DNA of 32,000 nucleotides, from the NCBI GenBank assembly GCA_031316235.1, contig JALDRA010000001.1, positions 480,001-512,000 of the forward strand, given 5' to 3'. Shown here in pieces: positions 3,422-25,064 of the stretch. Below the pieces are notes generated by a model, which was given only the letters and a program-made list of their open reading frames with translations, ran no database searches and was not told where the DNA came from. This stretch comes from Candidatus Scalindua sp. Its GTDB lineage: Bacteria > Planctomycetota > Brocadiia > Brocadiales > Scalinduaceae. Every line of letters begins with the position of its first letter. The stretch's first letter is position 1. A program made the position numbers and the translations under genes.

Positions 3422-3820
3422 TTATCTACAACCAGGGGCTTTGCATTTATCTCTTTCACTATGAATATGAGAAGCATACTTACCTAATTGATTACTATAA
3501 GAGTCCCTATGAACAAAATAATCTGTATTTTTTAATACTACTCTATCCTTAAGATTGTACGTATCTCTCAACCTCTTCTCAAGCTCTATATTTCTCTCAT
3601 CATAGAACATCTTTAATGGAATATTTTCCTTACTCCTCCATCTCGACAGCCTTTTAGAAACCAGTGACGGTGAAACATTCAAATCATGGGCAATTTCCCT
3701 TTGCGTAACAAATCCGGGCCACCTGTCATAAATAACCCTGGCGGTCTTATTGTCCAATTCAGGGTCACTTACCGCAATCCTGTACCTGCTCTTATTGTTA
3801 CCATCTCTTTTTTCAGCCAT
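3422..3820 (-). CDS. SorC/DeoR-type HTH regulator, N-terminal domain only (lacks sugar-phosphate-binding domain)
   Basis: ARVIYDRWPGFVTQREIAHDLNVSPSLVSKRLSRWRSKENIPLKMFYDERNIELEKRLRDTYNLKDRVVL matches the SorC-family N-terminal pattern (aArLYY..g.tQ.eIA..L.vSr..VSRlL..Ar..g.V.I.i.d......Le..L...y.Lk...Vv). The ORF stops after 132 aa where about 315 aa is usual. Confidence 0.55.
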   Translation of the reverse strand: MAEKRDGNNKSRYRIAVSDPELDNKTARVIYDRWPGFVTQREIAHDLNVSPSLVSKRLSRWRSKENIPLKMFYDERNIELEKRLRDTYNLKDRVVLKNTDYFVHRDSYSNQLGKYASHIHSERDKCKAPGCR

Positions 3821-3841
3821 AATTTACTTCCTGAACAGGGA

Positions 3842-3923
3842 GTTTTAAACAATGCTCTTCCACCATAGTATGCTGTTTTTGAAATACAGACGGCTGACAA
3901 CGCTCTATGGTGTTGTTTAAAAC
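3842..3923. promoter_or_regulatory. large interrupted inverted repeat in the divergent promoter region (candidate operator)
   Basis: Left arm 3842-3868 is GTTTTAAACAA-tgctcttc-CACCATAG. Right arm 3905-3923 is CTATGGTGTTGTTTAAAAC, whose reverse complement is GTTTTAAACAACACCATAG. That gives 19 matching nt, with an 8-nt insert in the left arm and about 36 bp between the arms. Confidence 0.5.
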
Positions 3924-3940
3924 ACATTGTATAAAATATA

Positions 3941-3969
3941 TTGACACCTGTAATATATTTTCCTAATAT
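3941..3969 (+). promoter_or_regulatory. sigma70-like promoter for the Lrp/AsnC gene
   Basis: TTGACA (3941-3946), a 17-nt spacer, then TAATAT (3964-3969), about 54 nt upstream of ATG 4023. Confidence 0.4.
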
Positions 3970-4022
3970 AAACTCTTTTCGGAATTTAGTTCAATAATAA
4001 AACCAACAGGGCGGCATTACAA

Positions 4023-4616
4023 ATGGGAAGTTTCACAATGAAACTCACAAAGAACGAGATTCATGTACTTAAGCTGCTAGTCCAGAATCCACTAAGTACA
4101 AACCAGGCAATATCAAACAAGCTTGAGATAACCTCCCAGGGTGTCGGCAAGATACGGAAGCAGCTCACAGAGAAAGGGTTTATAAAAAACCAGAAATTAA
4201 GCCTGGATTATGAAAAATTAGGCGTAAACATACATACAATTGCTTTGATAAAGATATTACCCAGTGTTTTTAAAAATTTCAAGAACAACGAATTAGATAA
4301 GGTTTTAAAGCCGAATAATGCTATCAGATGTTATGCAATACCTGAGACAGACATAACCCACATAATAATTTATGCTTTCAGGAATATTAAGGAATATGAC
4401 TCATATTTCAGAAATATTTTAGAGGAATTCGGGGACTATGTGGAGATCAAACACTCCTTTGTCCTTTCATCAGGGAGCATACTGAAATCGTCATCCAAAC
4501 AGATGCTTCTGGAAGTACTCGATAGCTGGGAATTTAATAAAAAAAGAATCTACCGTCGAAACAAAGATGAATACGAAACAGGAGATATGCTGGATAACAG
4601 GAAAAATCGCTTATAA
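4023..4616 (+). CDS. Lrp/AsnC-family transcriptional regulator
   Basis: N-terminal wHTH (LTKNEIHVLKLLVQNPLSTNQAISNKLEITSQGVGKIRKQLTEKGFI) followed by a RAM/AsnC-type ligand domain pattern (LGVNIHTIALIKI...ITHIIIYAFRNIKEYDSYFRNIL). An alternative start is ATG 4038. Confidence 0.8.
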   Translation: MGSFTMKLTKNEIHVLKLLVQNPLSTNQAISNKLEITSQGVGKIRKQLTEKGFIKNQKLSLDYEKLGVNIHTIALIKILPSVFKNFKNNELDKVLKPNNAIRCYAIPETDITHIIIYAFRNIKEYDSYFRNILEEFGDYVEIKHSFVLSSGSILKSSSKQMLLEVLDSWEFNKKRIYRRNKDEYETGDMLDNRKNRL

Positions 4617-4722
4617 TGACAAATTCCGGCATTTTATACACCAGACAATTTGTACCGTACGGTTTTCAGGATTGTAAATAAAACCTTACTGTTAGAAAAA
4701 TCTCTCAATTAAATTGGATATT

Positions 4723-4749
4723 CCGGCAATTCAGATTAGAGATTGCCGG
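4723..4749 (+). promoter_or_regulatory. 8-bp perfect inverted repeat upstream of the CBS gene
   Basis: CCGGCAAT (4723-4730), an 11-nt loop, then ATTGCCGG (4742-4749), 40 nt before ATG 4789. The related word ATTCCGGCA occurs at 4623-4631 and 4720-4728. Confidence 0.3.
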
Positions 4750-4788
4750 CTGTTGAAGAATCATCATAAAAGGAGGCATAGAAATAGT

Positions 4789-5223
4789 ATGATTACGGTA
4801 AACCAAATGCTGAATGACAAAAAGGATGGGGTTTTTACTGTTACACCTGAGGACACTTTACATCATGCATTGAAAGTTATGGCAGATAAAAACATTGGAG
4901 CGGTGGTTGTAGTCAAACAGGGGAAAATCGTTGGAATGTTTTCAGAACGAGATTTTGTGCGAAATGCCGTAGCCGACAGGAAGATATCAATTGATATGAA
5001 GGTAAGTCAATTAATGACGACTGTGGTGTGCTATGTACGCCCGGAACAGGCAATAGATGAGTGCATGGCCTTGATGACAGAGAAACGTACTCGTCATTTG
5101 CCAGTACTGGACGGAGAGAAGCTGATTGGTATTATCAGCATTGGAGATGTATTAAAGCACACCATAGCTGAAAAAGAGTTTACAATTCAGAATCTTGAAA
5201 CTTTTATTTCAGGAGGTCTTTAA
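4789..5223 (+). CDS. CBS-domain pair protein
   Basis: MITVNQMLNDKKDGVFTVTPEDTLHHALKVMADKNIGAVVVV..GKIVGMFSERDFVR plus a second CBS repeat (VSQLMTTVVCYVRPEQAIDECMALMTEKRTRHLPVLDGEKLIGIISIGDVLKH). I prefer ATG 4789, with AAAGGAGG at 4769-4776, over the track start at 4714. Confidence 0.8.
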   Translation: MITVNQMLNDKKDGVFTVTPEDTLHHALKVMADKNIGAVVVVKQGKIVGMFSERDFVRNAVADRKISIDMKVSQLMTTVVCYVRPEQAIDECMALMTEKRTRHLPVLDGEKLIGIISIGDVLKHTIAEKEFTIQNLETFISGGL

Positions 5224-5501: not shown

Positions 5502-7484
5502 ATGTCAGACCTAAAAGCGGATTTGCAAGTTCCAAAGAGTGGCTTTGCGGGTCTAAAACAAAACTTTAAGCAAGACATTATTTCCGGTTTCCTGGTTTTC
5601 CTTATTGCGCTCCCATTATGTCTCGGGATATCCCTTGCCTGCGGTTACCCGGCAATAGCGGGCATATTTACGGCAATTATTGGCGCTATACTTGCCACCG
5701 TTATCAGCAACTCCGAACTGACGATCAAGGGGCCGGCTGCCGGACTTATTGTAATTGCCATCGGAGCGATAACTGAATTTGGATTTACCGGAGGTAAAGA
5801 TCCGGCATCTGATTTACAGGCATACAAGCTCGTCCTCGGAATCGGTGTTGCCGCTGGCTGCATCCAGATTCTTTTCGGTCTGTTTCGTATCGGATCTCTT
5901 AGTGATTTCTTTCCCCTGTCAGTAGTGCACGGGATGCTGGCTGCTATCGGCATAATCATCATACTCAAACAATTTCCTATCGCAATGGGTGGCCGGGCCG
6001 CGGGAGCTCCTCTTGATCTGCTCTTATCAATTCCTGCAAAGATCATACACATGAATCCGAAAATTGCTGCAATAGGTATAGGAAGCCTGGGAATTATGTT
6101 CGGAATACCGCTCATCAAGAACAAATACATCAAGATGGCACCTACTCCCATGTTAGTGCTGATATTTGCCGTACCGTTAGGATTGTATTTTGGCTTATCC
6201 CATGAGCACACATATTTTTTTGAAGGTCGCGAATACAAGGTTGGGGATGAGTTTCTGGTTAACGTTCCGGGAAATATGTTCAAGGCAATGACCTATCCTG
6301 ACTTTTCTGCGTTAAAGACGGTCTCGGGGTGGAAATGGGTGATCATGTTCTCCCTGATCGGCAGCCTGGAGTCCCTGCTCAGTGCAAATGCCATTGATCT
6401 GCTGGACCCCTGGAAACGGAAGACCAATATGAATCGGGACATGCTTGCTGTCGGGATCGGGAATACCGTTTCCGCGTTTATTGGAGGCCTTCCCATGATT
6501 TCTGAGATTGTGCGGAGCAAGGCAAATATTGACAATGGCGCACGAAGCCGTTTCTCAGATCTGTACCATGGGCTTTTTCTGCTTCTTTTTGTGGCATTAG
6601 CACCATTCTTGCTCCATAAGATACCGCTTGCCGCCCTGGCGGCAATGCTCGTATACACCGGTTTTCAATTGACTGCACCACGAAAGTTTACTCTCGTTAA
6701 ACGGATCGGGAGAGAGCAGTTAATCATGTTTGTGGTTACCGTTATAGCTGTACTGGCGACGGACCTGGTTATCGGTATTGCTATCGGGATAGGAACAAAA
6801 TTTATTTTTCATATTATTAATGGCGTTCCGATACGTTCCCTCTTTACGTCCTATCTTGAACTCAGAGAGTTAGACAATGAAACCTGCTTCATTAGAGTTA
6901 AAGAGTCGGCTGTCTTCAGTAACTGGATTCCGATCAAGAAACAGATAGAGCGTTTTGGATTAATTCGAAACAAAAACCTGATATTAGACTTGACAGATAC
7001 CGCTATGGTTGACCACAGTGTGATGGAAAAACTTCACGAAATGAAAGATACGTTCAGTCAGAACAACCTCATGCTGGAAATTGTTGGGTTGGGGGGTCGC
7101 CAGTCTCTGTCCAGCCACCCTCTTTCGACACGCAGAAAGGTAGTTGAGTTAATAAAACGTATTTTGGTCTTTACCGATTCAGTCCTTCAGCCTCTGCTTG
7201 AACAGGAATTAAACTACCATGGGGTAAAAGACTTCACAACTATCGGGTGTGGTGGTGCCGGAGTAGTAACCAGTCAGCGATTGCGTATAGAGATCATAAC
7301 CCCGCCCGACAAAGCCAAACACCTTCTGGATTTTATTCGCGGTGAGATCTTACCAAAATATGCGGAAAAATATTCAGTAAAAGCGTTTACTGAAAATGTG
7401 GAAGTAATCCTTCCCGATGAACCATATGTCACAAAATTAAGTCATAACTCTTTATCAAATCAAACCATAACCATTATGAGATGA
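5502..7484 (+). CDS. SulP-family inorganic anion transporter with C-terminal STAS domain and an additional ~110-aa extension
   Basis: 660 aa. The N-terminus (GLKQNFKQDIISGFLVFLIALPLCLGISLACGYPAIAGIFTAIIGAILATVI) and later motifs (SLESLLSANAIDLL, NTVSAFIGGLPMISEIVRSKANIDNGARSR) are typical of SulP. The STAS-like region is at about aa 455-532 (nt ~6864-7097). AAGGAG lies 7 nt upstream of the ATG. Confidence 0.9.
   Translation: MSDLKADLQVPKSGFAGLKQNFKQDIISGFLVFLIALPLCLGISLACGYPAIAGIFTAIIGAILATVISNSELTIKGPAAGLIVIAIGAITEFGFTGGKDPASDLQAYKLVLGIGVAAGCIQILFGLFRIGSLSDFFPLSVVHGMLAAIGIIIILKQFPIAMGGRAAGAPLDLLLSIPAKIIHMNPKIAAIGIGSLGIMFGIPLIKNKYIKMAPTPMLVLIFAVPLGLYFGLSHEHTYFFEGREYKVGDEFLVNVPGNMFKAMTYPDFSALKTVSGWKWVIMFSLIGSLESLLSANAIDLLDPWKRKTNMNRDMLAVGIGNTVSAFIGGLPMISEIVRSKANIDNGARSRFSDLYHGLFLLLFVALAPFLLHKIPLAALAAMLVYTGFQLTAPRKFTLVKRIGREQLIMFVVTVIAVLATDLVIGIAIGIGTKFIFHIINGVPIRSLFTSYLELRELDNETCFIRVKESAVFSNWIPIKKQIERFGLIRNKNLILDLTDTAMVDHSVMEKLHEMKDTFSQNNLMLEIVGLGGRQSLSSHPLSTRRKVVELIKRILVFTDSVLQPLLEQELNYHGVKDFTTIGCGGAGVVTSQRLRIEIITPPDKAKHLLDFIRGEILPKYAEKYSVKAFTENVEVILPDEPYVTKLSHNSLSNQTITIMR
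7149..7412 (+). other. PII-like (ferredoxin-fold beta-alpha-beta x2) domain at the C-terminus of the SulP protein
   Basis: aa ~550-637 read as KRILVFTD / SVLQPLLEQELNYHGV / KDFTTIGCGGAG / RLRIEIITPPD / KAKHLLDFIRGEILPKY / SVKAFTENVEVI. This has the same segment order as GlnB-type PII proteins (KIEAII.. / ..GITGMTVTEVKGFG / KVKIEIVVPDD.. / GKIFV). The assignment is an inference from pattern, not a search result. Confidence 0.4.
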
Positions 7485-7509
7485 GTAAAAATGGTTAAAG
7501 AGACGTAAA

Positions 7510-8034
7510 ATGGATATATTTTTGAAACTCTTTTCTACACCGAAAACGCTTATTCGACGTCATTCATTAATCGGTGATTCAGGGGTCTTAACTATCGGAA
7601 AAAAGATAGAAAAGAAAGTGAATCGGCTGTTTTCCGGTTCCCTTGCCATCAGAGAAATTGATACAGGTTCAACAAATGCATGTGAACAGGAGATTACCGC
7701 TCTTACCAATACATTTTATGATATTGAGCGGTTTGGTGTCCATTTTGTTGCATCTCCCCGGCACGCCGACATGCTCATGGTTACCGGTCCGGTAACCAGA
7801 AACATGCGTGAAGCCCTGGTAAAAACGTATGAGGCAACCCCGGAACCGAAGATAGTTGTTGCGGTTGGCGATGACGCTATTAATGGCGGAATCTTCAGAG
7901 GGTCGTATGCAGTCCTGGACGGAGTTGACAGGGTTATACCGGTAAATTACTACATACACGGAGACCCGCCTTCACCAATGAAAATCCTTCTCTCCCTTTT
8001 AAATATCCTTGAAATTATAGAGAGTAAATCCTGA
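7510..8034 (+). CDS. NuoB/HycG/HyfI-family small subunit homologue lacking 3 of 4 FeS-cluster cysteines
   Basis: FGVHFVASPRHADMLMVTGPVTRNM...PEPKIVVAVG..INGGIF...VIPVNYYIHGDPPSP aligns by hand with HycG/NuoB (SPRHAD.l.vTG.VT / PKv.ia.GaCa.sGGiF / vPVDvyiPGCPP.P). The ligand positions read T55, C58, D122 and D152. Confidence 0.85.
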   Translation: MDIFLKLFSTPKTLIRRHSLIGDSGVLTIGKKIEKKVNRLFSGSLAIREIDTGSTNACEQEITALTNTFYDIERFGVHFVASPRHADMLMVTGPVTRNMREALVKTYEATPEPKIVVAVGDDAINGGIFRGSYAVLDGVDRVIPVNYYIHGDPPSPMKILLSLLNILEIIESKS

Positions 8035-8057
8035 TATAAGGAAAACGGACAATAGTT

Positions 8058-10106
8058 ATGTTGAATGTCATTACCGCTCAAATCTGTTTTTTCATCATGC
8101 TGTTATCTTTTGCAACCGGAGCAGCAGGCTCACTCCTCTTCATGAAAGATGACACACGTTCAAACTTGTGGGCTAATATCTCCGCAATTATTGGATCGAC
8201 GTTCGGTATCATTTCTTCGCTGATCGTCCTGGTATCAGGGAGCGGCTTTTCCTGTAACCTGAAATCATCGTTCCCTCTTCTTTCCTTTTCAATACAGGTA
8301 GACTGCCTCTGCGCTTTTTTCCTCTTCCTCATCTCAGTAATCTCCCTTTTGTGCTCTCTGTACGCAATAGGGTACACCAGACAGTACTATAAACACTACA
8401 ATATCGGTTCGCTGGGATTTTTCTATAACACTTTTCTTACCGGCATGGTATTTGTGGTTTCTGCGCACAACGGGCTGTTTTTTCTTGTGGTCTGGGAAGT
8501 AATGTCTCTCTCATCTTATTTCCTTGTTATTTTTGAACACAAAGAAGAAAAAAATATTGCGGCGGGATCGTTATATTTTGTTATGACGCATATTGGCACG
8601 GCCTTTATCATACTTGCGTTTCTGCTTCTTTACAAATCAACAGGTTCTCTCGATTTTACCATAATAAAAGACAGCATCGGTGAAATCTCACCTGTTACAA
8701 AAAATGCGGTCTTTATCCTTGCACTTATCGGGTTCGGGACAAAGGCGGGTATCATTCCGCTTCATACGTGGCTCCCAAGTGCTCACCCTGCGGCACCCTC
8801 ACATGTTTCCGCTTTAATGTCAGGGGTCATGATCAAGACAGCCATCTACATGTTAATCAGGATCTTTATGGAATTTATGCCTGATACACCTTTATGGTGG
8901 GGAGTTGTAATTCTCTTTGTCGGTTCTATATCTTCCCTCTTTGGCGTTCTCTATGCACTCTCGGAAAATGATCTTAAAAGATTACTGGCATTCAGCAGCA
9001 TTGAAAACATAGGCATTATTTTGCTCGGGCTTGGTGCTTCGCTGGTTTTCCTGGCCCTGGGTATGAAGCCATATGCAATGATGGCACTGATAGCGTCTTT
9101 ATTTCACACCCTAAACCATGCAACATTCAAGGCTTTACTCTTTTTGGGGGCAGGCTCAGTTATATCGAAAACAGGCACGCGTAATATCGAAGAATATGGC
9201 GGTATCATAAAATTTTTACCGTATACCGCATTTTTCTTTTTAATAGGTTCGATGGCAATTTCAGCACTCCCTCCGTTTAATGGTTTTTTCAGTGAATGGC
9301 TTACGTTTCAATCACTTTTCTCCGGAATTAAAACTACGCATATTTTTATCAAATTGATCTTTATCTCTGCGGCAGGTTCGCTGGCGTTAACGGGTGGCCT
9401 TGCCGCTGCCTGTTTTGTAAGGGCATTTGGTCTTGTATTCCTGGCACGTCCCAGGAGCGAGAGAACAATTTGTGCAAAAGAATCTTCAGTTTCATTACTG
9501 TCTGGTATGGGGGTTCTTGCAGCACTCACATTGCTGTTTGGGTTTTTTTCAGGATATATTTCAGCACTACTTTCAAAGGTTACAAAGAGTATTGTTGTTT
9601 TTCAGGGATCAGAACCAGCGGTTTCATCAAATTTTGAAACTGTCAGATTGCAGGATGGAACAGCCACCGTTTCCATGCCCGGCATCCTCATCTCCCTGGT
9701 CCTTGCTCTTCTGGCCATAACCGTTTTTGTCTATTTCCTGACACGCAGGCAAAAGGTTAAAAAGGGTATCACCTGGGATTGCGGAACACCTTTTACCGGA
9801 AGGATGGAGATAACGGCTACAGGCTTTTCGAGGTCATTGGTAACGATATTCAAGGGTATCCTGAAACCAACCAAACAAACTGATATTGAATACCATGATT
9901 CGAACCTTAAATATTTCACAAAATTTAACATAACGACACTGGGAACAGGGCACGACATTTACAATGAATATTTATATGCTCCTTTAAACAAATTAATCAC
10001 CAGGATTGCGAAATATCTCAGCGTGATTCAAAGCGGAAACATAAACGCTTATGTACTCTATATTATCATTGCCTTAATTACCCTGATACTACTCTTGGTA
10101 GTTTAA
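8058..10106 (+). CDS. HyfB/HycC/NuoL-type antiporter-like membrane subunit
   Basis: 682 aa, close to the size of E. coli HyfB. Contains VVWEVMSLSSYFLV (TM5 Glu, E147), GFGTKAGIIPLHTWLPSAHPAAPSHVSALMSGVMIKTAIY (K229) and FHTLNHATFKALLFLGAGSV. Confidence 0.85.
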   Translation: MLNVITAQICFFIMLLSFATGAAGSLLFMKDDTRSNLWANISAIIGSTFGIISSLIVLVSGSGFSCNLKSSFPLLSFSIQVDCLCAFFLFLISVISLLCSLYAIGYTRQYYKHYNIGSLGFFYNTFLTGMVFVVSAHNGLFFLVVWEVMSLSSYFLVIFEHKEEKNIAAGSLYFVMTHIGTAFIILAFLLLYKSTGSLDFTIIKDSIGEISPVTKNAVFILALIGFGTKAGIIPLHTWLPSAHPAAPSHVSALMSGVMIKTAIYMLIRIFMEFMPDTPLWWGVVILFVGSISSLFGVLYALSENDLKRLLAFSSIENIGIILLGLGASLVFLALGMKPYAMMALIASLFHTLNHATFKALLFLGAGSVISKTGTRNIEEYGGIIKFLPYTAFFFLIGSMAISALPPFNGFFSEWLTFQSLFSGIKTTHIFIKLIFISAAGSLALTGGLAAACFVRAFGLVFLARPRSERTICAKESSVSLLSGMGVLAALTLLFGFFSGYISALLSKVTKSIVVFQGSEPAVSSNFETVRLQDGTATVSMPGILISLVLALLAITVFVYFLTRRQKVKKGITWDCGTPFTGRMEITATGFSRSLVTIFKGILKPTKQTDIEYHDSNLKYFTKFNITTLGTGHDIYNEYLYAPLNKLITRIAKYLSVIQSGNINAYVLYIIIALITLILLLVV

Positions 10107-10112
10107 ACAGAC

Positions 10113-11051
10113 ATGGTTACCATACTTATCTGGACAATTCAGTTATTGCTTGTTCCTGCACTTTCACCGCTTCTTATCGGTGTGGTTAGAAAGATGAAGG
10201 CCAGACTGCAGAATCGAAAAGGGGCAGATATTTTTCAGCCTTACAGAGATCTCTGGAAACTGATGCACAAGGATGAAGTCATCAGCGAAGATGCTTCCTG
10301 GGTTTTTCGTACTGCCCCTTATATTATTTTCGGGATTACCATGATTGTCGGCGCCAGTATCCCACTGTTTACGACACTGATCCCGGATATCCTATTACAT
10401 GATTTTCTTGTAATTGTGTACCTTCTTGCGATAGGAACTTTTTTTCTGGCTCTTGCAGGCCTTGACACAGGGAATGCCTTTGGAGGTTTTGGATCGAGTC
10501 GAGAAATGGTTGTGGCCGCTTTAGCAGAAGGAGGCTTTATCTTCTCTTTTCTCGTACTCGCCTTACTATCAAATTCCACAAATCTGTTTTCCATAGCAGA
10601 ACATGTAGAAACTTTGCGCTTACACTCAAATGTTGAATTTGTGTCAATTGGTTTTGCTTTCTTCGGTTTTTTTATTGTCCTTCTTGCTGAAACCGGGCGT
10701 TACCCATTTGATAATCCCTCCACACACCTGGAACTTACGATGATTCACGAAGCAATGATTCTGGAGTACTCTGGCAAAAGACTTGCCCTTGTTGAATGGG
10801 CCGCTGCCAACAAATTCATGATTTTTCTCGCACTGGGTGTGAACCTGTTTTTCCCCTGGGGTATGGCGAATTCATCAGATTTCACCGATATCATTGTTTC
10901 CCTCGCCTTGTTTCTATCAAAGATGCTGGGTTTTTGCCTTACGATTGCAACGCTTGAATCACGGGTTGCCAAGATCAGATTTTTTAGAATACCAGACATT
11001 TTATTTACCTCTTTTATCCTTTGTGTGATTGCCATTGTAATAATTATTTAG
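10113..11051 (+). CDS. HyfC/HycD/NuoH-type membrane subunit
   Basis: 312 aa. The N-terminus (SPLLIGVVRKMKARLQNRKGADIFQPYRDLWKLMHKDE) and THLELTMIHEAMILEYSGKRLAL match the HycD/NuoH family pattern. Confidence 0.85.
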   Translation: MVTILIWTIQLLLVPALSPLLIGVVRKMKARLQNRKGADIFQPYRDLWKLMHKDEVISEDASWVFRTAPYIIFGITMIVGASIPLFTTLIPDILLHDFLVIVYLLAIGTFFLALAGLDTGNAFGGFGSSREMVVAALAEGGFIFSFLVLALLSNSTNLFSIAEHVETLRLHSNVEFVSIGFAFFGFFIVLLAETGRYPFDNPSTHLELTMIHEAMILEYSGKRLALVEWAAANKFMIFLALGVNLFFPWGMANSSDFTDIIVSLALFLSKMLGFCLTIATLESRVAKIRFFRIPDILFTSFILCVIAIVIII

Positions 11052-11059
11052 GAAAATTC

Positions 11060-11719
11060 ATGATTGAGATCTCATCACAAATTCTGTTTTATCTGGAAGT
11101 ATTAATCTATCTATCAGCAACGTTAATGCATCTGACAAAAAAAAATAGATCCATAATTTTTCTTTACCTGTTCCAATCACTCATTACAACGGTTTTGCTG
11201 GTAATTTTTTCGATCGAAAAGTTCAGTGAATCCCTGGTCTTTGTCATTTTCCTCACATTTTTAGTTAAAGTTATACTTGCCCCGCTTTTCTTTATGAAAC
11301 TGGTCAAACGGCATCAATTACAAATCGCCGTAAGCACGTATCTCAATATACCAATGACTCTTTTAGTTTTAACAATACTGACGGCAGTCACCCATTATCA
11401 CTTTCTTGAACCGCTTACTTCGCTTTCCCCCGGAGAAGAGAAGCTTTTGCTGCTTTCTGTCGCGACTATATTAATATCTCTCTTCCTGATAATAAACCGA
11501 AAGGGGGCTTTGTCACAGATGATCGGAATTTTGTCCCTTGAAAATGCAATAGTATCTTTTGCCTCGTTTGCGAGACTCGAGCACAACCCCGGACTTCAAA
11601 TCGGCATTATTTTTGATCTGCTTGTATGGACCATTATTGCCACAGTATTTGTTTCAATGATTTTCAGGAAATTCGGCACCTTAAATATTACCTCGATAAA
11701 AAAAACCCTGGAAGAATAA
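11060..11719 (+). CDS. HyfE-type small membrane subunit
   Basis: From ATG 11060 (MIEISSQ...) the protein is 219 aa. The C-terminal half (GALSQMIGILSLENAIVSFASFARLEHNPGLQIGIIFDLLVWTIIATVFVSMIFRKFGTLNITSIKKTLEE) parallels E. coli HyfE (..ILRQIFGYCLMENGSHLV...EIGIATDAIFAVIVMVLLARKIWRTHGTLDVNNLTALKG, recalled from memory). Confidence 0.7.
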   Translation: MIEISSQILFYLEVLIYLSATLMHLTKKNRSIIFLYLFQSLITTVLLVIFSIEKFSESLVFVIFLTFLVKVILAPLFFMKLVKRHQLQIAVSTYLNIPMTLLVLTILTAVTHYHFLEPLTSLSPGEEKLLLLSVATILISLFLIINRKGALSQMIGILSLENAIVSFASFARLEHNPGLQIGIIFDLLVWTIIATVFVSMIFRKFGTLNITSIKKTLEE

Positions 11720-11722
11720 AGC

Positions 11723-13171
11723 ATGTTAATATTTTTTCTCATTTTACCGCCCTGTCTGGCAGCGATGTTTTCTGTTTTTGTTCAAAAGAGAACCGGACTT
11801 ATTGAAAGATTTACTTTCATAGCTTCTGTTATTGAACTCTCAGCAGGTTTAAGCATAGTAACGTTTGTTCAACCGGGCAAACCGTATTCGCTCACTTCCT
11901 GTTTTTCTGTTGACGCCCTTGGTGCAATCCTGATACTCATGATAACCGTCATCGGACTTTTTGTCTCGTGGTATTCAATCAGCTATTTAAGATATGAAGT
12001 GACAGGACAGGTAATAGGTTTCAGCAGGGTTCGACAGTACTATATTTTCCTGAACCTGTTTCTGATGGCAATGCTTCTGGCGGTAACCACAACAAGCCCG
12101 ATAATAATGTGGATTGCCATTGAAGGTACAACGCTTTCGACAGCCTTCCTCATAAGCTTTTATAATGATCCATCGGCCGTAGATGCAGCCTGGAAATATT
12201 TGATTGTTAATTCAGTTGGACTACTCCTGGGCTTTATGGGAACACTTCTTTTCTTTTCACCCGTCATAAGCAGCACGAGTCATCAGGGTTTTGTATTCTG
12301 GGATACAATTTTTGCAAACGCACAGAATTCCAACCCCTTTATCGCAAAGATTGCCTTTGTCTTCGTCCTGATAGGGTATGGAACAAAGATGGGGCTGGTA
12401 CCTATGCATACGTGGCTGCCCGATGCCCACAGTAAAGCCCCGGTCCCGATAAGCAGCCTCCTTTCAGGCGTTCTTTTAAGTGTTGCCTTTTTTGCTATTC
12501 TTCACTTCAAAAAAGTTACTGATGCAATGTTAGGCCCTGGCTTTGCGCAGAATTTGTTGATGGTTTTTGGTACGATTTCTGTTTTTATGGCCTCCTTCTT
12601 TATCTATAATCAAAAGAGTTATAAACGCCTGCTCGCTTACTCCAGCATAGAGCACATGGGAATTATTGCCCTGGGTTATGGATTTGGCGGTATCGGTGCA
12701 TTCGCAGCGCTCCTTCACATGATCTTTCATGCTCTAGCAAAATCCTTGCTTTTTCTGTCTGCGGGTAACGTCTATTTAAGATTTAAATCAACTAAAATTC
12801 TTGATGTGAAAGGTGCACTTTCTGCCTTACCCATAACCAGCGTTCTCCTTCTGATTGGGTTTCTGGCTATAACCGGTGTCCCACCGTTCGGTATTTTTTT
12901 TACCGAACTATATATTCTGGCAAGCGGCATCACGAATCATCCTGTTATTACGATTATCGTGTTATTCTCACTTGTTCTTATTTTTGCCGGATTCTTACGT
13001 CATTTTACCTCCATGGTGTTCGGAAAAACCCCGGATACTATTTCAAGAGGAGAATCAAACATGGAGACTATCTTACCTTTAATTGTCATGACTATTCTCT
13101 TTATCATTATCAGCATCTATCTGCCGTCTCACATCAAGAGTTTGATTGATGCTGCCGTTTCAACGTACTAA
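11723..13171 (+). CDS. HyfF/NuoN/NuoM-type antiporter-like membrane subunit
   Basis: 482 aa. Contains IIMWIAIEGTTLSTAFLI (E134), GYGTKMGLVPMHTWLPDAHSKAPVPISSLLSGVLL (K222), YSSIEHMGIIALG and IFHALAKSLLFLSAGNV. Confidence 0.85.
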   Translation: MLIFFLILPPCLAAMFSVFVQKRTGLIERFTFIASVIELSAGLSIVTFVQPGKPYSLTSCFSVDALGAILILMITVIGLFVSWYSISYLRYEVTGQVIGFSRVRQYYIFLNLFLMAMLLAVTTTSPIIMWIAIEGTTLSTAFLISFYNDPSAVDAAWKYLIVNSVGLLLGFMGTLLFFSPVISSTSHQGFVFWDTIFANAQNSNPFIAKIAFVFVLIGYGTKMGLVPMHTWLPDAHSKAPVPISSLLSGVLLSVAFFAILHFKKVTDAMLGPGFAQNLLMVFGTISVFMASFFIYNQKSYKRLLAYSSIEHMGIIALGYGFGGIGAFAALLHMIFHALAKSLLFLSAGNVYLRFKSTKILDVKGALSALPITSVLLLIGFLAITGVPPFGIFFTELYILASGITNHPVITIIVLFSLVLIFAGFLRHFTSMVFGKTPDTISRGESNMETILPLIVMTILFIIISIYLPSHIKSLIDAAVSTY

Positions 13172-13173
13172 TT

Positions 13174-14748
13174 ATGAATACGGATCAGATTGTAGAAAAA
13201 TATGTCCCGGGGAACATGAAAGTAGAGATTTACGGCAATATCATAACCTACAAAATATATAAAAAAAATATTTCCCGGGTCTTTTACACCCTTTATCATA
13301 CGCTGAAACTCCCGCTCAAGACAATAACCGTTACTGACGAGAGGGAGGAAAATGATTCTTTCAAGATTTTTTATCTTTTCGGAGTCCCGGGGGAAAAAGT
13401 GTTTCTTGCCCCCTATATACTGCTGTCAAAAGAATACAAATTCCCTTCTCTCGCAAGTATGAATCACGTAACCACTGAGTATGAAAAGAAGATCAAGTCT
13501 CTTTTCGGTCTAGACCCAACTGGCCATTTAAACCCGAAAAAAATTATCCTTCACGAAAACTGGCCGGACAATGTGTTTCCCTTAAGAAGGGAATTTGACT
13601 GGAAGTCCAGGCCTGATATTGCGCATACTCCGTTTCATTTCGAAAAGGTTGAAGGAGATGGTATTTACGAAATCCCCGTAGGTCCCGTTCACGCGGGCAT
13701 TATTGAACCCGGTCACTTTCGCTTCAGTGTTGCTGGTGAAGAGATACTCTTGCTGGAACCGAGGCTGGGATATACACACAAAGGAAGCGAGAAGCTCTTT
13801 GAAGTCCTCTCTTCCATGGATGAGAAGATTACATTGTCAGAAAGGGTATCCGGCGACAGTTCATTCAGCCATTCACTTGCCTTTTGCCAGGCAATTGAAT
13901 CGTTATGTGAATATGAGGTGACAGAAAGATCAAAGTATCTTCGGGTTATTTATTCGGAACTTGAGAGATTGGCGAATCATTTTGGAGACATTGGAGCCAT
14001 AATGCTGGACACTGGTTTCAGTTTTGGAGGAAGCAATGGCGGCCGTTTACGGGAAATTGTCATGCAGCTGAACGAGCTGTTAACAGGCAGCCGTTTTCTC
14101 CGGGGCGTAAATACAGTAGGCGGTGTAACCAAAGACATATCAGCCCCTCTTATTGACAAGATCTTAAATGAGCTGGAAGATATAAGAAAAGACTTTGAAG
14201 AAGTTATTCATATAGCAGAAAATTGTAATTCTCTGTTGAATCGACTCAAGGGTACCGGAGTGTTAGAAACTCGTATTGCCAGGGACCACGGAGTGGTCGG
14301 TATCGTGGCAAGGTCAATGGGTTTTGCAGCAGATGCCAGAATTGACTACCCATATGCTGCTTATGACAGGTTCTCTTTTGCAGCAGCGACAGAGAATGAA
14401 GGAGATGTATACGCACGATTTTGTGTCCGTGTAAAAGAGAGCTATACCTCCATCCAGATCCTTAAAGAAGCATTAGCGACTCTTCCTGGGGGACCTTGTC
14501 TGGTTTCACCAAAACCCGTCTCCTTGAATAAAGCCAGCTATGGACTTGGAATAACCGAGGGATGGCGTGGCGACATCATTTACTTTGTGGCGACAAATTC
14601 CCGGGGACAGATTATCAGGGTTGATGTGAGAGACCCATCATTTCTAAACTGGCCGGTTCTCAGACATGCCGGGAAAGGCAACGTTGTCCCGGACTTCCCT
14701 CTCATCAACAAAAGTTTCAATCTCTCTTATTCAGGATTCGATTTGTAG
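13174..14748 (+). CDS. HyfG/HycE-type large subunit homologue (NuoC-NuoD fusion) lacking all four NiFe cysteine ligands
   Basis: GPVHAGIIEPGHFRFSVAGEEILLLEPRLGYTHKGSEKL is the group-4 large-subunit signature. The L1 motif reads ERVSGDSSFSH where ERvCGiC..aH is expected. The C-terminus reads DFPLINKSFNLSYSGFDL-stop where D.PLi..S.DPCySCtDR is expected. Confidence 0.85.
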   Translation: MNTDQIVEKYVPGNMKVEIYGNIITYKIYKKNISRVFYTLYHTLKLPLKTITVTDEREENDSFKIFYLFGVPGEKVFLAPYILLSKEYKFPSLASMNHVTTEYEKKIKSLFGLDPTGHLNPKKIILHENWPDNVFPLRREFDWKSRPDIAHTPFHFEKVEGDGIYEIPVGPVHAGIIEPGHFRFSVAGEEILLLEPRLGYTHKGSEKLFEVLSSMDEKITLSERVSGDSSFSHSLAFCQAIESLCEYEVTERSKYLRVIYSELERLANHFGDIGAIMLDTGFSFGGSNGGRLREIVMQLNELLTGSRFLRGVNTVGGVTKDISAPLIDKILNELEDIRKDFEEVIHIAENCNSLLNRLKGTGVLETRIARDHGVVGIVARSMGFAADARIDYPYAAYDRFSFAAATENEGDVYARFCVRVKESYTSIQILKEALATLPGGPCLVSPKPVSLNKASYGLGITEGWRGDIIYFVATNSRGQIIRVDVRDPSFLNWPVLRHAGKGNVVPDFPLINKSFNLSYSGFDL

Positions 14749-14884: not shown

Positions 14885-14903
14885 TATACTCATCTCATAA
14901 CTG
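14885..14903 (+). repeat. 5'-end fragment of the TA-flanked MITE-like repeat family
   Basis: TA|TACTCATCTCATAACTG matches the first 13 nt of the family 5' end exactly. No matching 3' end was found downstream. Confidence 0.5.
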
Positions 14904-15190
14904 TTTTTCCTTGATTTACAAAGTTCTTACCGTTATCCTAAGCTCTTTATCTGGCCCCTTGCCGCCTTCACGGTATTAAACAGTGCTTAGACACAATCCC
15001 TGTGTCTGCCCCGGAACTGCCGGGATGCAGGGCGGCCAGAAATTCAGTAACCTGTTTCTGGATAAACACTTGAAGATTGCTGAACTATTGCAGCGACGCA
15101 GGAGATGGGTAGTTCAATCCCAACCGCTGAATAAATACGGTAAATTAATCGTAAGGCTCCGGTAGCAATACTTATACCCGGCTATGGAAC

Positions 15191-16936
15191 ATGCAGAACG
15201 GTACAATACCAACCAAAGTAAAAAAGAATGGAATTGAATGGACGGTACGTAAAGGGTATGAGGATCTTCAAGACAGGTTTAATCTTACCTGTCTCCATTC
15301 AGCATTACAGAAAATCCCGCATACGATAATAAAAGATACAAAGGTGAGATCTGTTTTTTTTATACCGGACTCAGACACTAATATGAGAGGTATATATGTC
15401 AAGTGTTTCAAGGAGAGAGATTCCAGAGACTTTAACAAATATCTCGATTGCGTCAAGCATCTCTTTGTCAGGACGAAAGCCGAAACAGAATGGAATGTGG
15501 GAAACAGACTGTTAAGCAAGGAGATTAACACTGCACTCCCCCTGGCAATAGCTGAAAACAGGTCGTGGTTTTTCCGGAAAAACAGCATGCTGATTACAGG
15601 GGCCATACCAGATAGTAAATCCCTGATAGATTTTTGTCAATCGAGCTTTCACGACACCCAATCCGAAGAGGCATCCATCAGAAAAAAGAACCTCATCAAT
15701 ACTCTGGCAGAATTTGTCAGAGATATCCACAGTAAGGGGTTCTTTCACAGCGACTTCCATGCAGGTAATATTTTAATACAATTCCACCATGATCATACCG
15801 GGCAGGACCAGCCGTATTCGTTTTATCTGATAGACCTCCACCACGTAAAGATACTGAAGACATTATCAAAACGGAAGATCCTGTACAACCTCGCACAATT
15901 ATTTAATTCACTCTCTTCATCCTTGACACAATATGACAGGAGACAGTTTTTCCAATCGTATGGAAAAGATAGTTTTGGCAAACAGAAAGAGAGGCAGAAA
16001 CTTGTGGACCAGATAGATACAATATCCTGCAGGTTAAGGTTCACCCATTATAAAAGCCGGCTGAAGAGATGTCTGAAAAGAAGCAGTCTCTTTTCAAAGA
16101 GAAAGTTTGACGGTTTCACGATATTTTTCAGAAAGGGCTATGATACGGAATTTTTTTTTGACCTCTTGGAAAAACATGATACGGCTCTGGCACATAAGCT
16201 GTGCGACACAATCCTGAAACAAGACAGAAAGACCATCTTAACCCGGCACCCTTTTCAGGATAAAGAGATCCAGACCGTTGTAGTAAAGCACTATAAATCT
16301 CCTCCCGGGTTTGGTCTCATAAAAAACAGCTTCCGGAAGTCACCGGGAAAGAAAGCCTGGATTTCCGGAAATGGTTTATTACTATATGGATTTGATGCTC
16401 CTCTGCCGCTCACCTTAATAGAAAAAAGGGTACTCGGAGTTGTCACGGACAGCTACCTGATCATGGAAGCAGTCTCTCACTCGCTTGAGATGGACAGATA
16501 TATCGTAAAGAATTTCCACGACCAGGAGGAATCCAGATTACCCGTAATTGTAAAGATGAAAAGAAGTTTTATAGACCAGTTCGCGCAAATCATTGCGAAA
16601 ATGCATAATAAGAGGGTTTTTCATCACGACCTGAAGACCTGTAATATAATGGTAAAGGCCAATTCAGCGTTCGATTTCACTTTCCTCGATTTTGATAAAG
16701 TGACATTCGGGAAAAACGTGCGTATCCGGGAAAGGATAAGGAATTTAACACAGATCAATCTCTCAACTCCAGGGTGTATCACCCTGAAGGATCGACTGAG
16801 ATTTTTAGGGGAATACCTCAGGCAATGTAACTTACAAGAGGCAAAAAGAACCATACGCAATGAAATTTCCGCTATGAGTAAGAGAGAAAAAATACTCTAT
16901 GTTACCGGTAAAGGAGATGTGACGGAAGATTGGTAG
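15191..16936 (+). CDS. protein with two tandem lipopolysaccharide-kinase (Kdo/WaaP/InaA-type) domains
   Basis: Domain 1 has IYVKCFKER..., GFFHSDFHAGNILI and FYLIDLHHV. Domain 2 has VVVKHYKSP..., VFHHDLKTCNIMV and FTFLDFDKV. Both have the catalytic-loop H.D....N and D-[FL]-x metal-loop patterns of this kinase fold. Confidence 0.7.
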   Translation: MQNGTIPTKVKKNGIEWTVRKGYEDLQDRFNLTCLHSALQKIPHTIIKDTKVRSVFFIPDSDTNMRGIYVKCFKERDSRDFNKYLDCVKHLFVRTKAETEWNVGNRLLSKEINTALPLAIAENRSWFFRKNSMLITGAIPDSKSLIDFCQSSFHDTQSEEASIRKKNLINTLAEFVRDIHSKGFFHSDFHAGNILIQFHHDHTGQDQPYSFYLIDLHHVKILKTLSKRKILYNLAQLFNSLSSSLTQYDRRQFFQSYGKDSFGKQKERQKLVDQIDTISCRLRFTHYKSRLKRCLKRSSLFSKRKFDGFTIFFRKGYDTEFFFDLLEKHDTALAHKLCDTILKQDRKTILTRHPFQDKEIQTVVVKHYKSPPGFGLIKNSFRKSPGKKAWISGNGLLLYGFDAPLPLTLIEKRVLGVVTDSYLIMEAVSHSLEMDRYIVKNFHDQEESRLPVIVKMKRSFIDQFAQIIAKMHNKRVFHHDLKTCNIMVKANSAFDFTFLDFDKVTFGKNVRIRERIRNLTQINLSTPGCITLKDRLRFLGEYLRQCNLQEAKRTIRNEISAMSKREKILYVTGKGDVTEDW

Positions 16937-19684: not shown

Positions 19685-19779
19685 CAATATTGAGGTTCCG
19701 GGTGAAAGTGACAACCATTTTTTACGGCAGTATTTTGAAAGGACATAAGTTACTTATTAATCTTTTTAAGGAGTACAGT

Positions 19780-20895
19780 ATGAGCAGAGTTAAATTTGGT
19801 ACTATTTTCGGTGTTGTGGCGTTTGCCACTATCACCCTTACCGTAAACCCATATAGTATGGTTAGAGCATCGGAGGCCCAGAAAAGTCTTAAAGAGAATC
19901 AGATTGGTTACGGGAGAGGCGGAAGGGTTCAGGCCGGATCCCCATCTAAAAATTCAGAGGAACCTATCCAGCCAATACCACTCAGCTTTGACTATGACAG
20001 GGACAAGGTTGAATTAGGCAAGAAGCTGTTTTTTGATCCCAGGCTGTCAAAATCCGGCTGGATCTCCTGTAACTCCTGCCATAATATTGGAACAGGCGGT
20101 GCCGACAATCTGCCAACCTCGATTGGACATAAATGGTTTTTCGGCCCCATAAACTCTCCGACCGTTCTTAACTCGAAGTTTAATCTTGCCCAGTTCTGGG
20201 ACGGCCGTGCAAAGGACCTGCAGGAGCAGGCAGGGGGACCGATAGCAAACCCTCTTGAAATGGCTTCAAACCATGAGCTTGCGATTGAAATATTACAGTC
20301 AATACCACAATATGTGCAATGGTTTGAGGAGGTATACGGAGCGAAAGAGCTGTATGGAAACGGTAAAATAGACATTCTTAACGTGACTGATGCAATTGCA
20401 GCATTTGAGGAGACACTAACCACACCTGGATCCAGCTTTGATCATTGGCTAAACGGTTACGATAACGCTATCTCAGACTCTGAAAAGGAGGGATACCGCT
20501 TATTTAAGGAAAAGGGCTGTATCACCTGCCATAACGGTGTAGGGGTAGGCGGTAACTCTTACCAGAAATTCGGTCTCGCCAGGCCCTATGATAAAGACAC
20601 GCACACACTGGGTAGATATAATGTAACAAAAGACGAGAAAGACAAGTACGTATTCAAGGTTCCGCTGCTCAGAAATATCGAACTCACGGCTCCCTATTTT
20701 CATGACGCGAGCACATGGGATTTAAGCGAGGCGGTAAAGGTCATGTCTGAATATCAACTCGGAAGTTCGTTATCTGATGATGAAACAGGCAAGATTGTTG
20801 CGTTCTTGAAGACCTTGACGGGAGAACAGCCTGAAATCGTTTTTCCCATTCTCCCCCCTTCAACTATCGCAACTCCACAACCAAACAGAAATTAA
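19780..20895 (+). CDS. ccp: di-haem cytochrome c peroxidase (CCP/MauG family), secreted
   Basis: I prefer ATG 19780 (AAGGAG 6 nt upstream), which gives the signal peptide MSRVKFGTIFGVVAFATITLTV. There are two CxxCH haem motifs (CNSCHNIG, CITCHNG), and GKKLFFDPRLS, FWDGRA..L..QA.GP..NP.EM, FKVPLLRNIELTAPYFHD fit the family. Confidence 0.9.
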   Translation: MSRVKFGTIFGVVAFATITLTVNPYSMVRASEAQKSLKENQIGYGRGGRVQAGSPSKNSEEPIQPIPLSFDYDRDKVELGKKLFFDPRLSKSGWISCNSCHNIGTGGADNLPTSIGHKWFFGPINSPTVLNSKFNLAQFWDGRAKDLQEQAGGPIANPLEMASNHELAIEILQSIPQYVQWFEEVYGAKELYGNGKIDILNVTDAIAAFEETLTTPGSSFDHWLNGYDNAISDSEKEGYRLFKEKGCITCHNGVGVGGNSYQKFGLARPYDKDTHTLGRYNVTKDEKDKYVFKVPLLRNIELTAPYFHDASTWDLSEAVKVMSEYQLGSSLSDDETGKIVAFLKTLTGEQPEIVFPILPPSTIATPQPNRN

Positions 20896-24445: not shown

Positions 24446-24826
24446 TTACACACGAAACTGTTTGATTTCTAAATCTGGTATAATTCTATAATGCTTTGTA
24501 TTTCCTGTATATAATATTTCATTGGTCTCTACTGTTGATGCAGCAATTAAGACATCAGATAAACATACATCGACCTTAAGGCCATATTGTTCCATATATA
24601 TAATTGCTCTATGGCCAATATTTTCACTTAGAGGTATTACTTCAAATGAATAGTCAGATATGAAGTGGCGTATCTGTTTACTCTCTTGTTTGCTTTTTAC
24701 ACCTTGAAACAATTCTAAATAGGTAATTGTTGAAATCTTTCTTAAATCTTCATTTTCAATTACATGAGCAGCTTTCTCATTACCTCTCAGAAACCATATC
24801 AATATGTCTGTATCAAAGATCATCAA
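24446..24826 (-). CDS. vapC: PIN-domain toxin, type II TA system
   Basis: MMIFDTDILIWFLRGNEKA...TYLELFQG...DVLIAASTVETNEILYTGNTKHY shows the PIN acidic residues (D5/D7, E, D, N-T-K-H tail) typical of VapC. It overlaps the upstream antitoxin gene by 11-14 nt. Confidence 0.85.
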   Translation of the reverse strand: MMIFDTDILIWFLRGNEKAAHVIENEDLRKISTITYLELFQGVKSKQESKQIRHFISDYSFEVIPLSENIGHRAIIYMEQYGLKVDVCLSDVLIAASTVETNEILYTGNTKHYRIIPDLEIKQFRV

Positions 24827-25064
24827 TCCTTCCTTTTCGTAACTTCCTTACATACTCATCAACATTTTTGATATCATCACGATTTTTCCAAATACCGTAT
24901 GCAGGATGTTCTTTGATTGGTTTTTCTTTATTGGCTCTTTTCTTTATTGGAACGAGAACCCCCTTCTTTTTCCCCCGGTAAAGAATAGTTACTGATTCAT
25001 TTCGATCCAGAGCTTTTATCACTTCACTCATTTTTCGTCTCAAATCTACTATAGATGCCTCCAT
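24813..25064 (-). CDS. Phd/YefM-type antitoxin partner of VapC
   Basis: I prefer ATG 25064 (AAGGGGG 8 nt upstream), which gives the 83-aa MEASIVDLRRKMSEVIKALDRNESVTILYRGKKKGVLVP...AYGIWKNRDDIKNVDEYVRKLRKGR. The upstream 42 codons of the track ORF have no support. Confidence 0.75.
   Translation of the reverse strand: MEASIVDLRRKMSEVIKALDRNESVTILYRGKKKGVLVPIKKRANKEKPIKEHPAYGIWKNRDDIKNVDEYVRKLRKGRIDDL

Follow-up and report, generated by a model that had tools for sequence, protein, structure and literature searches.

Ech-hydrogenase-related (Ehr) complexes are a known family with no assigned function, defined by a homologue of the group 4 [NiFe]-hydrogenase large subunit that lacks the NiFe cysteines and is accompanied by NuoB-, NuoH- and antiporter-like subunits (PMC6349859, PMC10284858). 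Here we describe a cluster of seven genes on the + strand (5502-14748) of a 32-kb stretch of DNA, hereafter the window, in which six genes for such a complex follow the gene for a SulP-family transporter with STAS and PII-like domains (SulP-PII). The source is Candidatus Scalindua sp., a marine anammox planctomycete, to whose annotated proteins the HyfG-like and SulP proteins of the window are 100% identical. Judged from sequence comparisons, the seven genes may form an accessory unit for the uptake of dissolved inorganic carbon (DIC), in which the Ehr complex would be coupled to an ion gradient rather than driven by redox chemistry; we give this reading an even chance of being correct. The Ehr complexes of the Candidate Phyla Radiation (CPR), described in 2020, have in common with the window a group 4 large subunit without NiFe cysteines and NuoB-, NuoH- and antiporter-like subunits (PMC7304191). 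The window differs from them in its host, an anammox planctomycete, and in having its cluster linked with SulP-PII and, among relatives, with DabA and carbonic anhydrase genes.

The best solved relatives of the window large and small subunits are those of E. coli hydrogenase 4 and formate hydrogenlyase (Hyf and Hyc; 7z0s), with which the membrane set HyfB, HyfC, HyfE and HyfF is also shared. In contrast to those enzymes, the window has no NiFe site, no iron-sulfur (FeS) cluster and none of HyfA/HyfH/HycB/HycF, HyfD, FdhF, hyp and hycI. The Mrp/Mnh antiporters resemble the Ehr in combining MrpD/NuoL-like and NuoK-like subunits for redox-independent ion translocation, but by Pfam the window has no homologues of MrpE, MrpF, MrpG or MrpB and does have homologues of NuoB, NuoCD and NuoH. 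The DAB systems (DabAB/DabABC) likewise use complex-I-type antiporter-like subunits without redox chemistry, and beside the same SulP clade; here the difference is that the window lacks DabA (PF10070; Pfam and tblastn) and a Zn site like that of a beta-carbonic anhydrase (beta-CA), and that the Ehr has its NuoB, NuoCD and NuoH homologues. In chemoautotrophs, CPII, a PII-like protein that shares its structural group with the domain fused to SulP here, is encoded beside DAB genes. The NDH-1MS/MS' complexes (CupA/CupB) offer a parallel to the role proposed here, as they are derived from complex I and recruited to DIC uptake alongside BicA and SbtA/SbtB. However, NDH-1MS is redox-driven, from ferredoxin to plastoquinone, and contains Cup proteins, whereas the window complex has no cofactor sites and Pfam scans gave no Cup homologue. 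Finally, BicA shares the SLC26 fold and STAS domain with the window SulP, and SbtB, the regulator of SbtA, resembles the domain fused to it; unlike in BicA and SbtA-SbtB, the PII-like regulator of the window is fused in cis to SulP rather than acting on a separate SbtA partner, and its T-loop is shortened.

The cluster opens with the SulP/SLC26 gene (5502-7484, 660 aa), which is followed, at successive gaps of 25, 23, 6, 8, 3 and 2 bp, by genes for a NuoB/HycG-like subunit without an FeS site (7510-8034, 174 aa; PF01058), a HyfB-like antiporter-like subunit (8058-10106, 682 aa; PF00361, and 684 bits, above the cut-off, to NF005086, 'hydrogenase 4 subunit B'), a HyfC/NuoH-like subunit (10113-11051, 312 aa; PF00146, E=3e-44), a HyfE-like (NuoJ/K-like) subunit (11060-11719, 219 aa; weak PF00420, and NF008556, 'hydrogenase 4 membrane subunit', at 1e-14, below the cut-off), a HyfF-like antiporter-like subunit (11723-13171, 482 aa; PF00361, with MbhH and MbsH as best solved relatives) and a HyfG-like NuoC+NuoD fusion without NiFe ligands (13174-14748, 524 aa; PF00329 and PF00346). 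The HyfE-like gene is given from its ATG at 11060, though an overlapping TTG at 11021 could serve as its start instead. These open reading frames (ORFs) agree exactly with the seven + strand genes and the gaps reported in the initial annotation, and Pfam and NCBIfam agree for every gene with its SulP, NuoB/HyfI-, HyfB-, HyfC-, HyfE-, HyfF- and HyfG-like calls. Its further statement that neither promoter nor terminator lies between the genes agrees, for terminators, with a scan that placed no site inside the short gaps (the regional count equals the chance expectation); as a whole, the promoter and terminator scans were uninformative.

Both subunits that would carry the redox centers of a hydrogenase have lost their ligands. 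An alignment of the HyfG-like protein with E. coli HycE (7z0s_E, E=2.5e-75) places Ser, Ser, Ser and Gly at the positions of the four NiFe cysteines (L1 RxCGxC, L2 DPCxxC), and alignment of the NuoB-like protein with HycG, MbhJ and mitochondrial PSST gives Thr, a retained Cys, Asp and Asp at the four cysteines of the proximal/N2 cluster. This state, with one cysteine of four in NuoB and none in HyfG, is kept in more than 20 homologues of the window clade (clade A). The Cys-less HyfG motifs RVSGDSSFSHSLAFCQA and NKSFNLSYSG are invariant in 17 homologues of ~60% identity, and the NuoB motifs GS[T/D]NACEQ, VGDDA and PGDPP run throughout the clade. Because the same Cys-less states are conserved clade-wide, the ligand loss is not a recent decay. 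Among the other ORFs of the window (those of at least 120 aa without overlap to a larger ORF, except 26901-27281), Pfam detected no ferredoxin-type, formate dehydrogenase, hyp or hycI domain. Thus the NiFe cysteines, the set of proximal [4Fe-4S] cysteines and the ferredoxin-type and maturation genes that would mark a group 4 [NiFe]-hydrogenase are all missing from the 32-kb window. The initial annotation had stated that both 'catalytic' subunits lack their metal ligands, that partner and maturation genes are absent from the window and that the complex cannot be a hydrogenase; the alignments to solved structures and the ORF scan bear this out on each point. Without a NiFe site or FeS cluster, the Ehr should therefore not be drivable by electrons. 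Clade-wide, the three former FeS cysteines of NuoB are Thr/Asp, Asp and Asp, and an invariant Asp lies between the former NiFe cysteines of HyfG.

By domain content and alignment the window complex has the composition by which an Ehr is defined, so the label 'Ehr-type' given to it earlier is appropriate. Its nearest homologues (56-63% identical) are labelled as CPR phyla (Patescibacteria, Wildermuthbacteria, Uhrbacteria), and the window Ehr nests inside the CPR-type clade in a rough neighbor-joining tree without support values; CPR Ehr sequences have been found to be monophyletic (Jaffe et al.). By these sequence relationships, the six genes encode an Ehr complex belonging to the CPR-type clade, which stays ~60% identical across phyla. 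The ion-path residues of the membrane subunits are largely in place. In the HyfF-like protein, the Glu of transmembrane helix (TM) 5, TM7 Lys, TM11 His/Lys and TM12 Glu align with those of MbhH/MbsH and the TM8 Lys is replaced by Ser, and direct reading of the HyfB-like sequence finds the TM5 Glu, the TM7 and TM8 Lys, the TM11 His/Lys and the TM12 Glu. Together with the missing redox-cofactor ligand set, these intact ion-path residues make a gradient-coupled, non-redox ion translocator the best supported function.

Other Ehr clades differ in layout and equipment. The six-gene unit is kept in two gene orders, with NuoB first (type A, including the closest relatives) or NuoB last (type B). In clade B the NuoB protein keeps all four N2 cysteines, and in clade C a NuoI-NuoB fusion adds a 2x[4Fe-4S] domain, that is, two extra [4Fe-4S] motifs. 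Clade-C loci in Planctomycetota (L174:9178-21161 and L173:1756-12329; L numbers denote the loci compared) are divergent, with HyfBCEF on one strand and HyfG and NuoB on the other, and in both the 2x[4Fe-4S] ferredoxin domain is fused N-terminally to NuoB. Just upstream of the clade-C HyfG gene lies a gene encoding HTH_17 and PTS_EIIA_2 domains, which is fused to HyfG in P0336.

The transporter at the head of the cluster has the Sulfate_transp and STAS domains of the SulP/SLC26 family in order: PF00916 matches at E=2e-51, followed by a weak Pfam STAS match to a C-terminal fragment (E=0.002; aa 458-532, 6873-7097, + strand). TIGR00815 aligns over aa 20-534, below its cut-off. The best solved relative is BicA (6ki1, 2e-21), whose Na+ ligands D258 and T262 align with the invariant E290 and S294 of the window SulP, residues of like chemistry. 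The DauA and generic sulP models of NCBIfam score as well as BicA on this protein. Downstream of the STAS domain, the PII-like domain (aa 546-641, 7137-7424, + strand) is weak in Pfam alone (E=0.014), yet PF00543 matches are precomputed for most homologues. A profile of the domain searched against the PDB found TTHA0516 at 3e-19 and SbtB at 7.6e-9, with canonical PII proteins at 7e-4 or worse. An AlphaFold model (pLDDT 87.5) has the beta-alpha-beta-beta-alpha-beta fold, and the top 50 Foldseek hits to it are all TTHA0516, SbtB or CPII (TM-score 0.70-0.77). The SulP-STAS-PII architecture proposed in the initial annotation is thereby confirmed, and the C-terminal ~95 residues are, by profile and predicted structure, a PII-like domain of the carbon-regulatory SbtB/CPII kind and not of the GlnB/GlnK kind. 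The architecture belongs to a large family found mostly in Planctomycetota, within which the T-loop of the Scalindua clade is ~9 residues shorter in the alignment than that of Pirellulales homologues. In SbtB, the T-loop is the part that contacts the transporter. A paralog of the window SulP (P0127) is encoded in the same genome.

The neighborhood of this SulP clade points to inorganic carbon. We examined 80 metagenomic relatives of the window SulP (50-63% identity) with 10-kb flanks. DAB genes (DabA, DabB or a third antiporter-like gene, X481) lie within 10 kb of SulP in 48 of them, and the DabA matches (PF10070) reach E-values down to 1e-261. A full Ehr cluster stands beside SulP in eight of the 80 (seven of them distinct), and three loci have both an Ehr and DAB genes. 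Where both flanks reach at least 5 kb (24 loci), DAB genes are found in 17, an Ehr in three and neither in six. Carbonic anhydrase genes flank SulP or the Ehr in L081, L170, L171, L141 and L144, and one is found ~1.4 kb away in L094. Ehr, beta-CA, SulP and DabA occur together in L144. Given its DAB and carbonic anhydrase neighbors, its SbtB/CPII-like domain and its relation to BicA, the window SulP clade is, on this comparative evidence, a component of DIC-uptake loci.

The SulP-linked Ehr clusters, counting those beside another SulP clade, fall into at least four clades of the neighbor-joining tree, with clade C represented in L093, L104, L113, L131, L144, L157 and L174. Their arrangement also varies, with SulP before the Ehr, after it, or with the Ehr embedded between DAB genes and SulP. 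From tree and gene order, Ehr clusters have thus been placed beside the window SulP clade several times independently and in different orders. The closest association is in L093, where overlaps of 4 and 8 bp join the genes for DabB, a third antiporter-like protein and HyfB, and SulP-PII comes after NuoB; as read from these overlaps, the Ehr is in this one case translationally coupled to the DAB genes. Of two clade-C Ehr loci that were chosen independently of SulP, L174 (Planctomycetaceae) has its Ehr clustered with DabA, DabB, a NuoM-like gene and SulP-PII.

Variants of the DAB genes themselves were also met. In planctomycete DAB operons (L105:8505-9950, L174:17592-19136), a third full-length antiporter-like subunit of ~480-514 aa is encoded between DabB and SulP-PII and greatly exceeds in size the DabC of DAB1, which is half the size of NuoM (2026 preprint). 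In L133 (3598-14287), a SulP gene without the PII domain is followed by DabA and then by a full Mrp-like set comprising MrpE, MbhD/E, MnhB, NuoK-like and MrpD-like proteins and a NuoL-like protein of 700 aa, and the same layout recurs in L117, L134, L138, L149, L156, L159 and L161. This arrangement resembles a 'DabA-Mrp' form of the DAB pump, of which we met no description.

Within the anammox lineage, the slot after SulP holds in Scalindua relatives an Ehr of type A, an Ehr of type B or nothing. The fullest case is L170 (SulP 71% identical to that of the window), which has a type A Ehr with subunits 64-74% identical and the same Cys-less NuoB, a remnant of a beta-CA gene, a convergent DabA gene and a full Mrp operon upstream, so that Mrp, SulP-PII, Ehr, beta-CA remnant and DabA are contiguous. 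The closest HyfG (72%) is found in L081, where a beta-CA gene directly follows HyfG and the contig ends before SulP. The beta-CA remnant that follows HyfG in L081 and L170 has no match in the window. In L083/L084 (Scalindua rubra) and L168/L169, the SulP is 72-77% identical and stands in the same IF-2B/CitMHS locus as in the window, followed by a type B Ehr whose HyfG is 42-43% identical and whose NuoB has all four cysteines. The closest SulP (83%), that of L166/L167, is again in this locus, and the kinase gene that starts at 15191 in the window comes directly after it. The spacer at ~14900-15190 of the window aligns with the SulP-kinase spacer of L167 (mean column identity is 76% across the full alignment and rises within the spacer). 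Compared with the closest relative, the Ehr block (7485 to ~14890, + strand, the 3' boundary being approximate) is thus gained or lost as a whole, as a clean indel. In other loci, two Pro_CA_2 genes lie immediately upstream of SulP (63%) in L171 (Brocadiaceae), L172 has an alpha-CA gene ~6 kb downstream of its SulP (63%), and at L085 (SulP 73%) Ehr, DAB and CA genes are all missing from the surrounding 10 kb. In Scalindua rubra (L083:5998-9909), genes for an ammonium transporter, a canonical PII protein (GlnK-type) and an alginate-export-family porin stand immediately upstream of SulP-PII and the type B Ehr.

We also examined the association from the Ehr side, in 80 loci (L001-L080) from species-representative genomes scanned with the HyfG alignment. 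Outside the anammox lineage, F-type ATP synthase genes are the sole recurrent neighbors of type A loci. The Cys-less type A operon directly adjoins the ATP synthase genes (alpha, gamma, beta, epsilon) in the CPR/Patescibacteria-labelled loci L001, L002, L009, L013 and L078 (for example L009:1948-4344). This neighborhood fits a role of the CPR Ehr in membrane ion energetics.

A mechanism that would accommodate these observations is as follows. SulP would be a BicA-like transporter that couples bicarbonate to a cation, and its STAS domain would gate it together with the fused SbtB/CPII-type domain, which may sense adenine-nucleotide and carbon status. The Ehr would act as a gradient-coupled ion translocator through its NuoH-like, NuoJ/K-like and two antiporter-like subunits, which appear to keep their ion-path residues. 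By recycling the coupling cation or protons and buffering pH, it could sustain bicarbonate import by SulP and, where present, CO2 hydration of the DAB type. What we infer in this scheme is the bicarbonate substrate, the co-transcription of the seven genes, the ion and direction of Ehr transport and a contact between SulP and the Ehr. The initial annotation had offered ion-gradient-coupled uptake of an anion, possibly inorganic carbon, as a guess; it is now backed by the DAB-linked SulP clade, the SbtB/CPII-like domain, the carbonic anhydrase neighbors and the recurrent Ehr clusters.

Several observations weigh against this proposal. For the transporter, the third Na+ ligand of BicA, T302, aligns with an Ile in the window SulP, and a score of 120 bits to the NCBIfam BicA model (NF050096), with a cut-off of 880, means that the protein is not a BicA equivalog. 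For the linkage, SulP occurs without an Ehr in the closest relatives, L166/L167, and likewise in L085, L171 and L172, from which it follows that the Ehr is accessory and dispensable for SulP. From the Ehr side, SulP is adjacent in two of the 80 loci (L011, L063), both times a member of another SulP clade, and tblastn with one beta-CA and two DabA queries, which divergent carbonic anhydrases would escape, found neither gene within 10 kb of any Ehr in L001-L080. L173, the other clade-C locus chosen independently of SulP, has no DAB or SulP gene within 10 kb. With 78 of the 80 genome loci lacking an adjacent SulP, the idea that SulP is a standard partner of Ehr complexes was rejected. Synteny of SulP and Ehr, which had been put forward earlier as a check on the proposal, is thus not general, although it recurs beside the SulP clade of the window. 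For the Ehr itself, subunits of the MrpE/F/G/B type, thought to be necessary for Na+ handling in Mrp and in membrane-bound hydrogenase (MBH), are absent, so that Na+/H+ exchange is not evident from its composition. In addition, the ~60% conservation of the peripheral arm is more than a plain antiporter would need. Lastly, the SulP-linked Ehr clades differ in redox equipment, with N2 cysteines in clade B and the 2x[4Fe-4S] domain in clade C, which makes a single shared mechanism uncertain; what the associations have in common is, for the same reason, probably ion translocation and not a particular chemistry.

The conservation of the peripheral arm leaves room for another reading, in which the Ehr would itself be a vectorial machine for hydrating or trapping CO2, a third type beside NDH-1MS/Cup and DAB; ion flow through the antiporter-like subunits would drive the conversion of CO2 to bicarbonate in the remodelled former NiFe/quinone pocket of the NuoB/NuoCD arm, and SulP would handle bicarbonate alongside. 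The arm, including the pocket motifs RVSGDSSFSHSLAFCQA and NKSFNLSYSG, is far more conserved than expected of a vestige, the Ehr takes the same genomic slot beside the same SulP clade as DabAB, and DAB provides a precedent in which a NuoL-like subunit is coupled to a carbonic anhydrase site. The Thr/Asp, Asp and Asp in place of the FeS cysteines of clade A, together with the invariant Asp between the former NiFe cysteines, could form a new polar or metal site. Ehr clades A, B and C share no set of Zn-type ligands (the Cys/His/Asp of a beta-CA), however, and L093, L144, L170 and L174 also encode DabA and carbonic anhydrase, which would make a second CO2 hydratase redundant; the CPR hosts, moreover, are non-autotrophic and have their Ehr beside ATP synthase. 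We consider this explanation unlikely, though not negligible, and hold a similarly tentative view of the broader idea that SulP-PII-linked Ehr complexes form a third class of complex-I-derived DIC machine, either driving CO2 capture directly or gating the SulP-SbtB-like transporter as a supercomplex. A role in redox chemistry, with electrons supplied by a ferredoxin, formate dehydrogenase or NuoEF-like partner from another locus and used to pump ions, as proposed for Mbx/MBS-type complexes, and with SulP a mere neighbor or a supplier of sulfur substrate, would agree with the formate dehydrogenase-Ehr complexes proposed in the literature, with the NuoB FeS cysteines kept in clades B and C and the 2x[4Fe-4S] domain fused to NuoB in the latter, and with the electron-transport role that the Scalindua profunda paper assumed for its 'two hydrogenase gene clusters'. 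It is highly improbable for the window complex: more than 20 homologues of its clade have no cluster-binding site left and hence no electron path, the 32-kb window holds no partner gene, and the recurring neighbors are DIC genes rather than sulfur or formate genes.

The adjacency might also carry no function, if the 3' side of SulP were a permissive integration spot for mobile Ehr cassettes and the Ehr a general Mrp-like device for pH/Na+ homeostasis that works independently of SulP. Such a spot would explain why the Ehr block forms a clean indel, missing from the nearest relative, why types A and B alternate at the same site, and why most Ehr loci have no SulP. It is harder to reconcile with independent juxtapositions in unrelated lineages, in different gene orders and with start and stop codons overlapping those of DAB genes, and a cursory look at the block ends noticed no integrase or repeat. 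The adjacencies observed, two in the Ehr-centered sample and seven distinct ones in the SulP-centered sample, likewise exceed the ~0.1-0.2 per 80-locus sample that we estimate by chance on the assumption of a few SulP genes per ~3000-gene genome, and we regard a purely positional origin as quite unlikely. Very unlikely, in our judgement, is that the anion transported by SulP is a different one (sulfate, molybdate or, as with DauA, a C4-dicarboxylate) and that the unit serves its uptake. SulP substrates are not readable from sequence, the DauA and generic sulP models match the score of BicA, T302 of BicA is not conserved, and a CitMHS-family transporter is encoded nearby on the other strand; against this, DabA, DabB and carbonic anhydrase genes dominate the neighborhoods, and among the PII types the fused domain falls with the carbon-regulatory SbtB/CPII group.

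The remaining features of the window were also surveyed. Matches to TrmB-like, IF-2B and RIO-like Pfam families had suggested an archaeal origin, which was overturned by the exact matches to Candidatus Scalindua proteins, and Rfam and tRNA scans found no RNA genes. Three small genes, absent from the otherwise syntenic relative L166, lie between CitMHS and SulP (3422-5223); one, on the - strand, encodes a helix-turn-helix (HTH) protein, another an HTH protein of the TrmB/MarR kind, and the third a CBS-pair protein (4714-5223, + strand; PF00571). The CBS-pair protein is a possible regulator, a weak link. A CBS-pair gene also lies upstream of SulP-PII in the Brocadiaceae loci L171 (~2.3 kb, beyond the two Pro_CA_2 genes) and L172 (~0.6 kb), but at 25% identity the two were not accepted as orthologs. 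The TrmB-like gene of the window is not shared with the Brocadiaceae loci. Downstream of the Ehr, the non-coding spacer of ~290 nt (14900-15190), which has no Rfam match, precedes a gene for a 581-aa protein with two Kdo/RIO-like kinase domains (15191-16936). This gene and that for a di-heme cytochrome c peroxidase of the MauG/CCP family (19690-20895) are apparently unrelated to the Ehr finding. Further on, the - strand carries a PIN-domain toxin and Phd/YefM-type antitoxin pair (24446-25190).

Ehr complexes, SulP-type bicarbonate transporters, SbtB/CPII proteins and DAB pumps are each already known. In the openly searchable literature, which does not include the original Ehr paper (Marreiros et al. 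2013), we found no description of a SulP fused to an SbtB/CPII-like domain, of the dominant DAB association of the SulP-PII clade, of the recurrent placement of Ehr clusters beside it, or of NuoB cluster ligands being lost altogether in the CPR-type Ehr clade; the linkage of SulP and Ehr, of which the initial annotation knew no report, appears in this respect to be new. Ehr complexes are widespread, occurring in CPR/Patescibacteria, anammox bacteria, comammox Nitrospira, ammonia-oxidizing archaea, Planctomycetota, Acidobacteriota and others, and genome papers repeatedly list them as 'function unknown'. Collectively, the conservation of the Cys-less clade, the recurrent DAB-associated SulP neighbors and the coupling to DAB genes suggest a first testable role for this orphan family, the gradient-coupled support of DIC uptake. 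If SulP-PII-linked complexes did prove to be a third DIC machine, this would be the first function for a family of CPR bacteria, anammox bacteria, nitrifiers, Planctomycetota and many soil phyla. The finding bears on the reuse of the complex-I module for non-redox work and on how slow-growing autotrophs such as the marine anammox bacteria may acquire their carbon.

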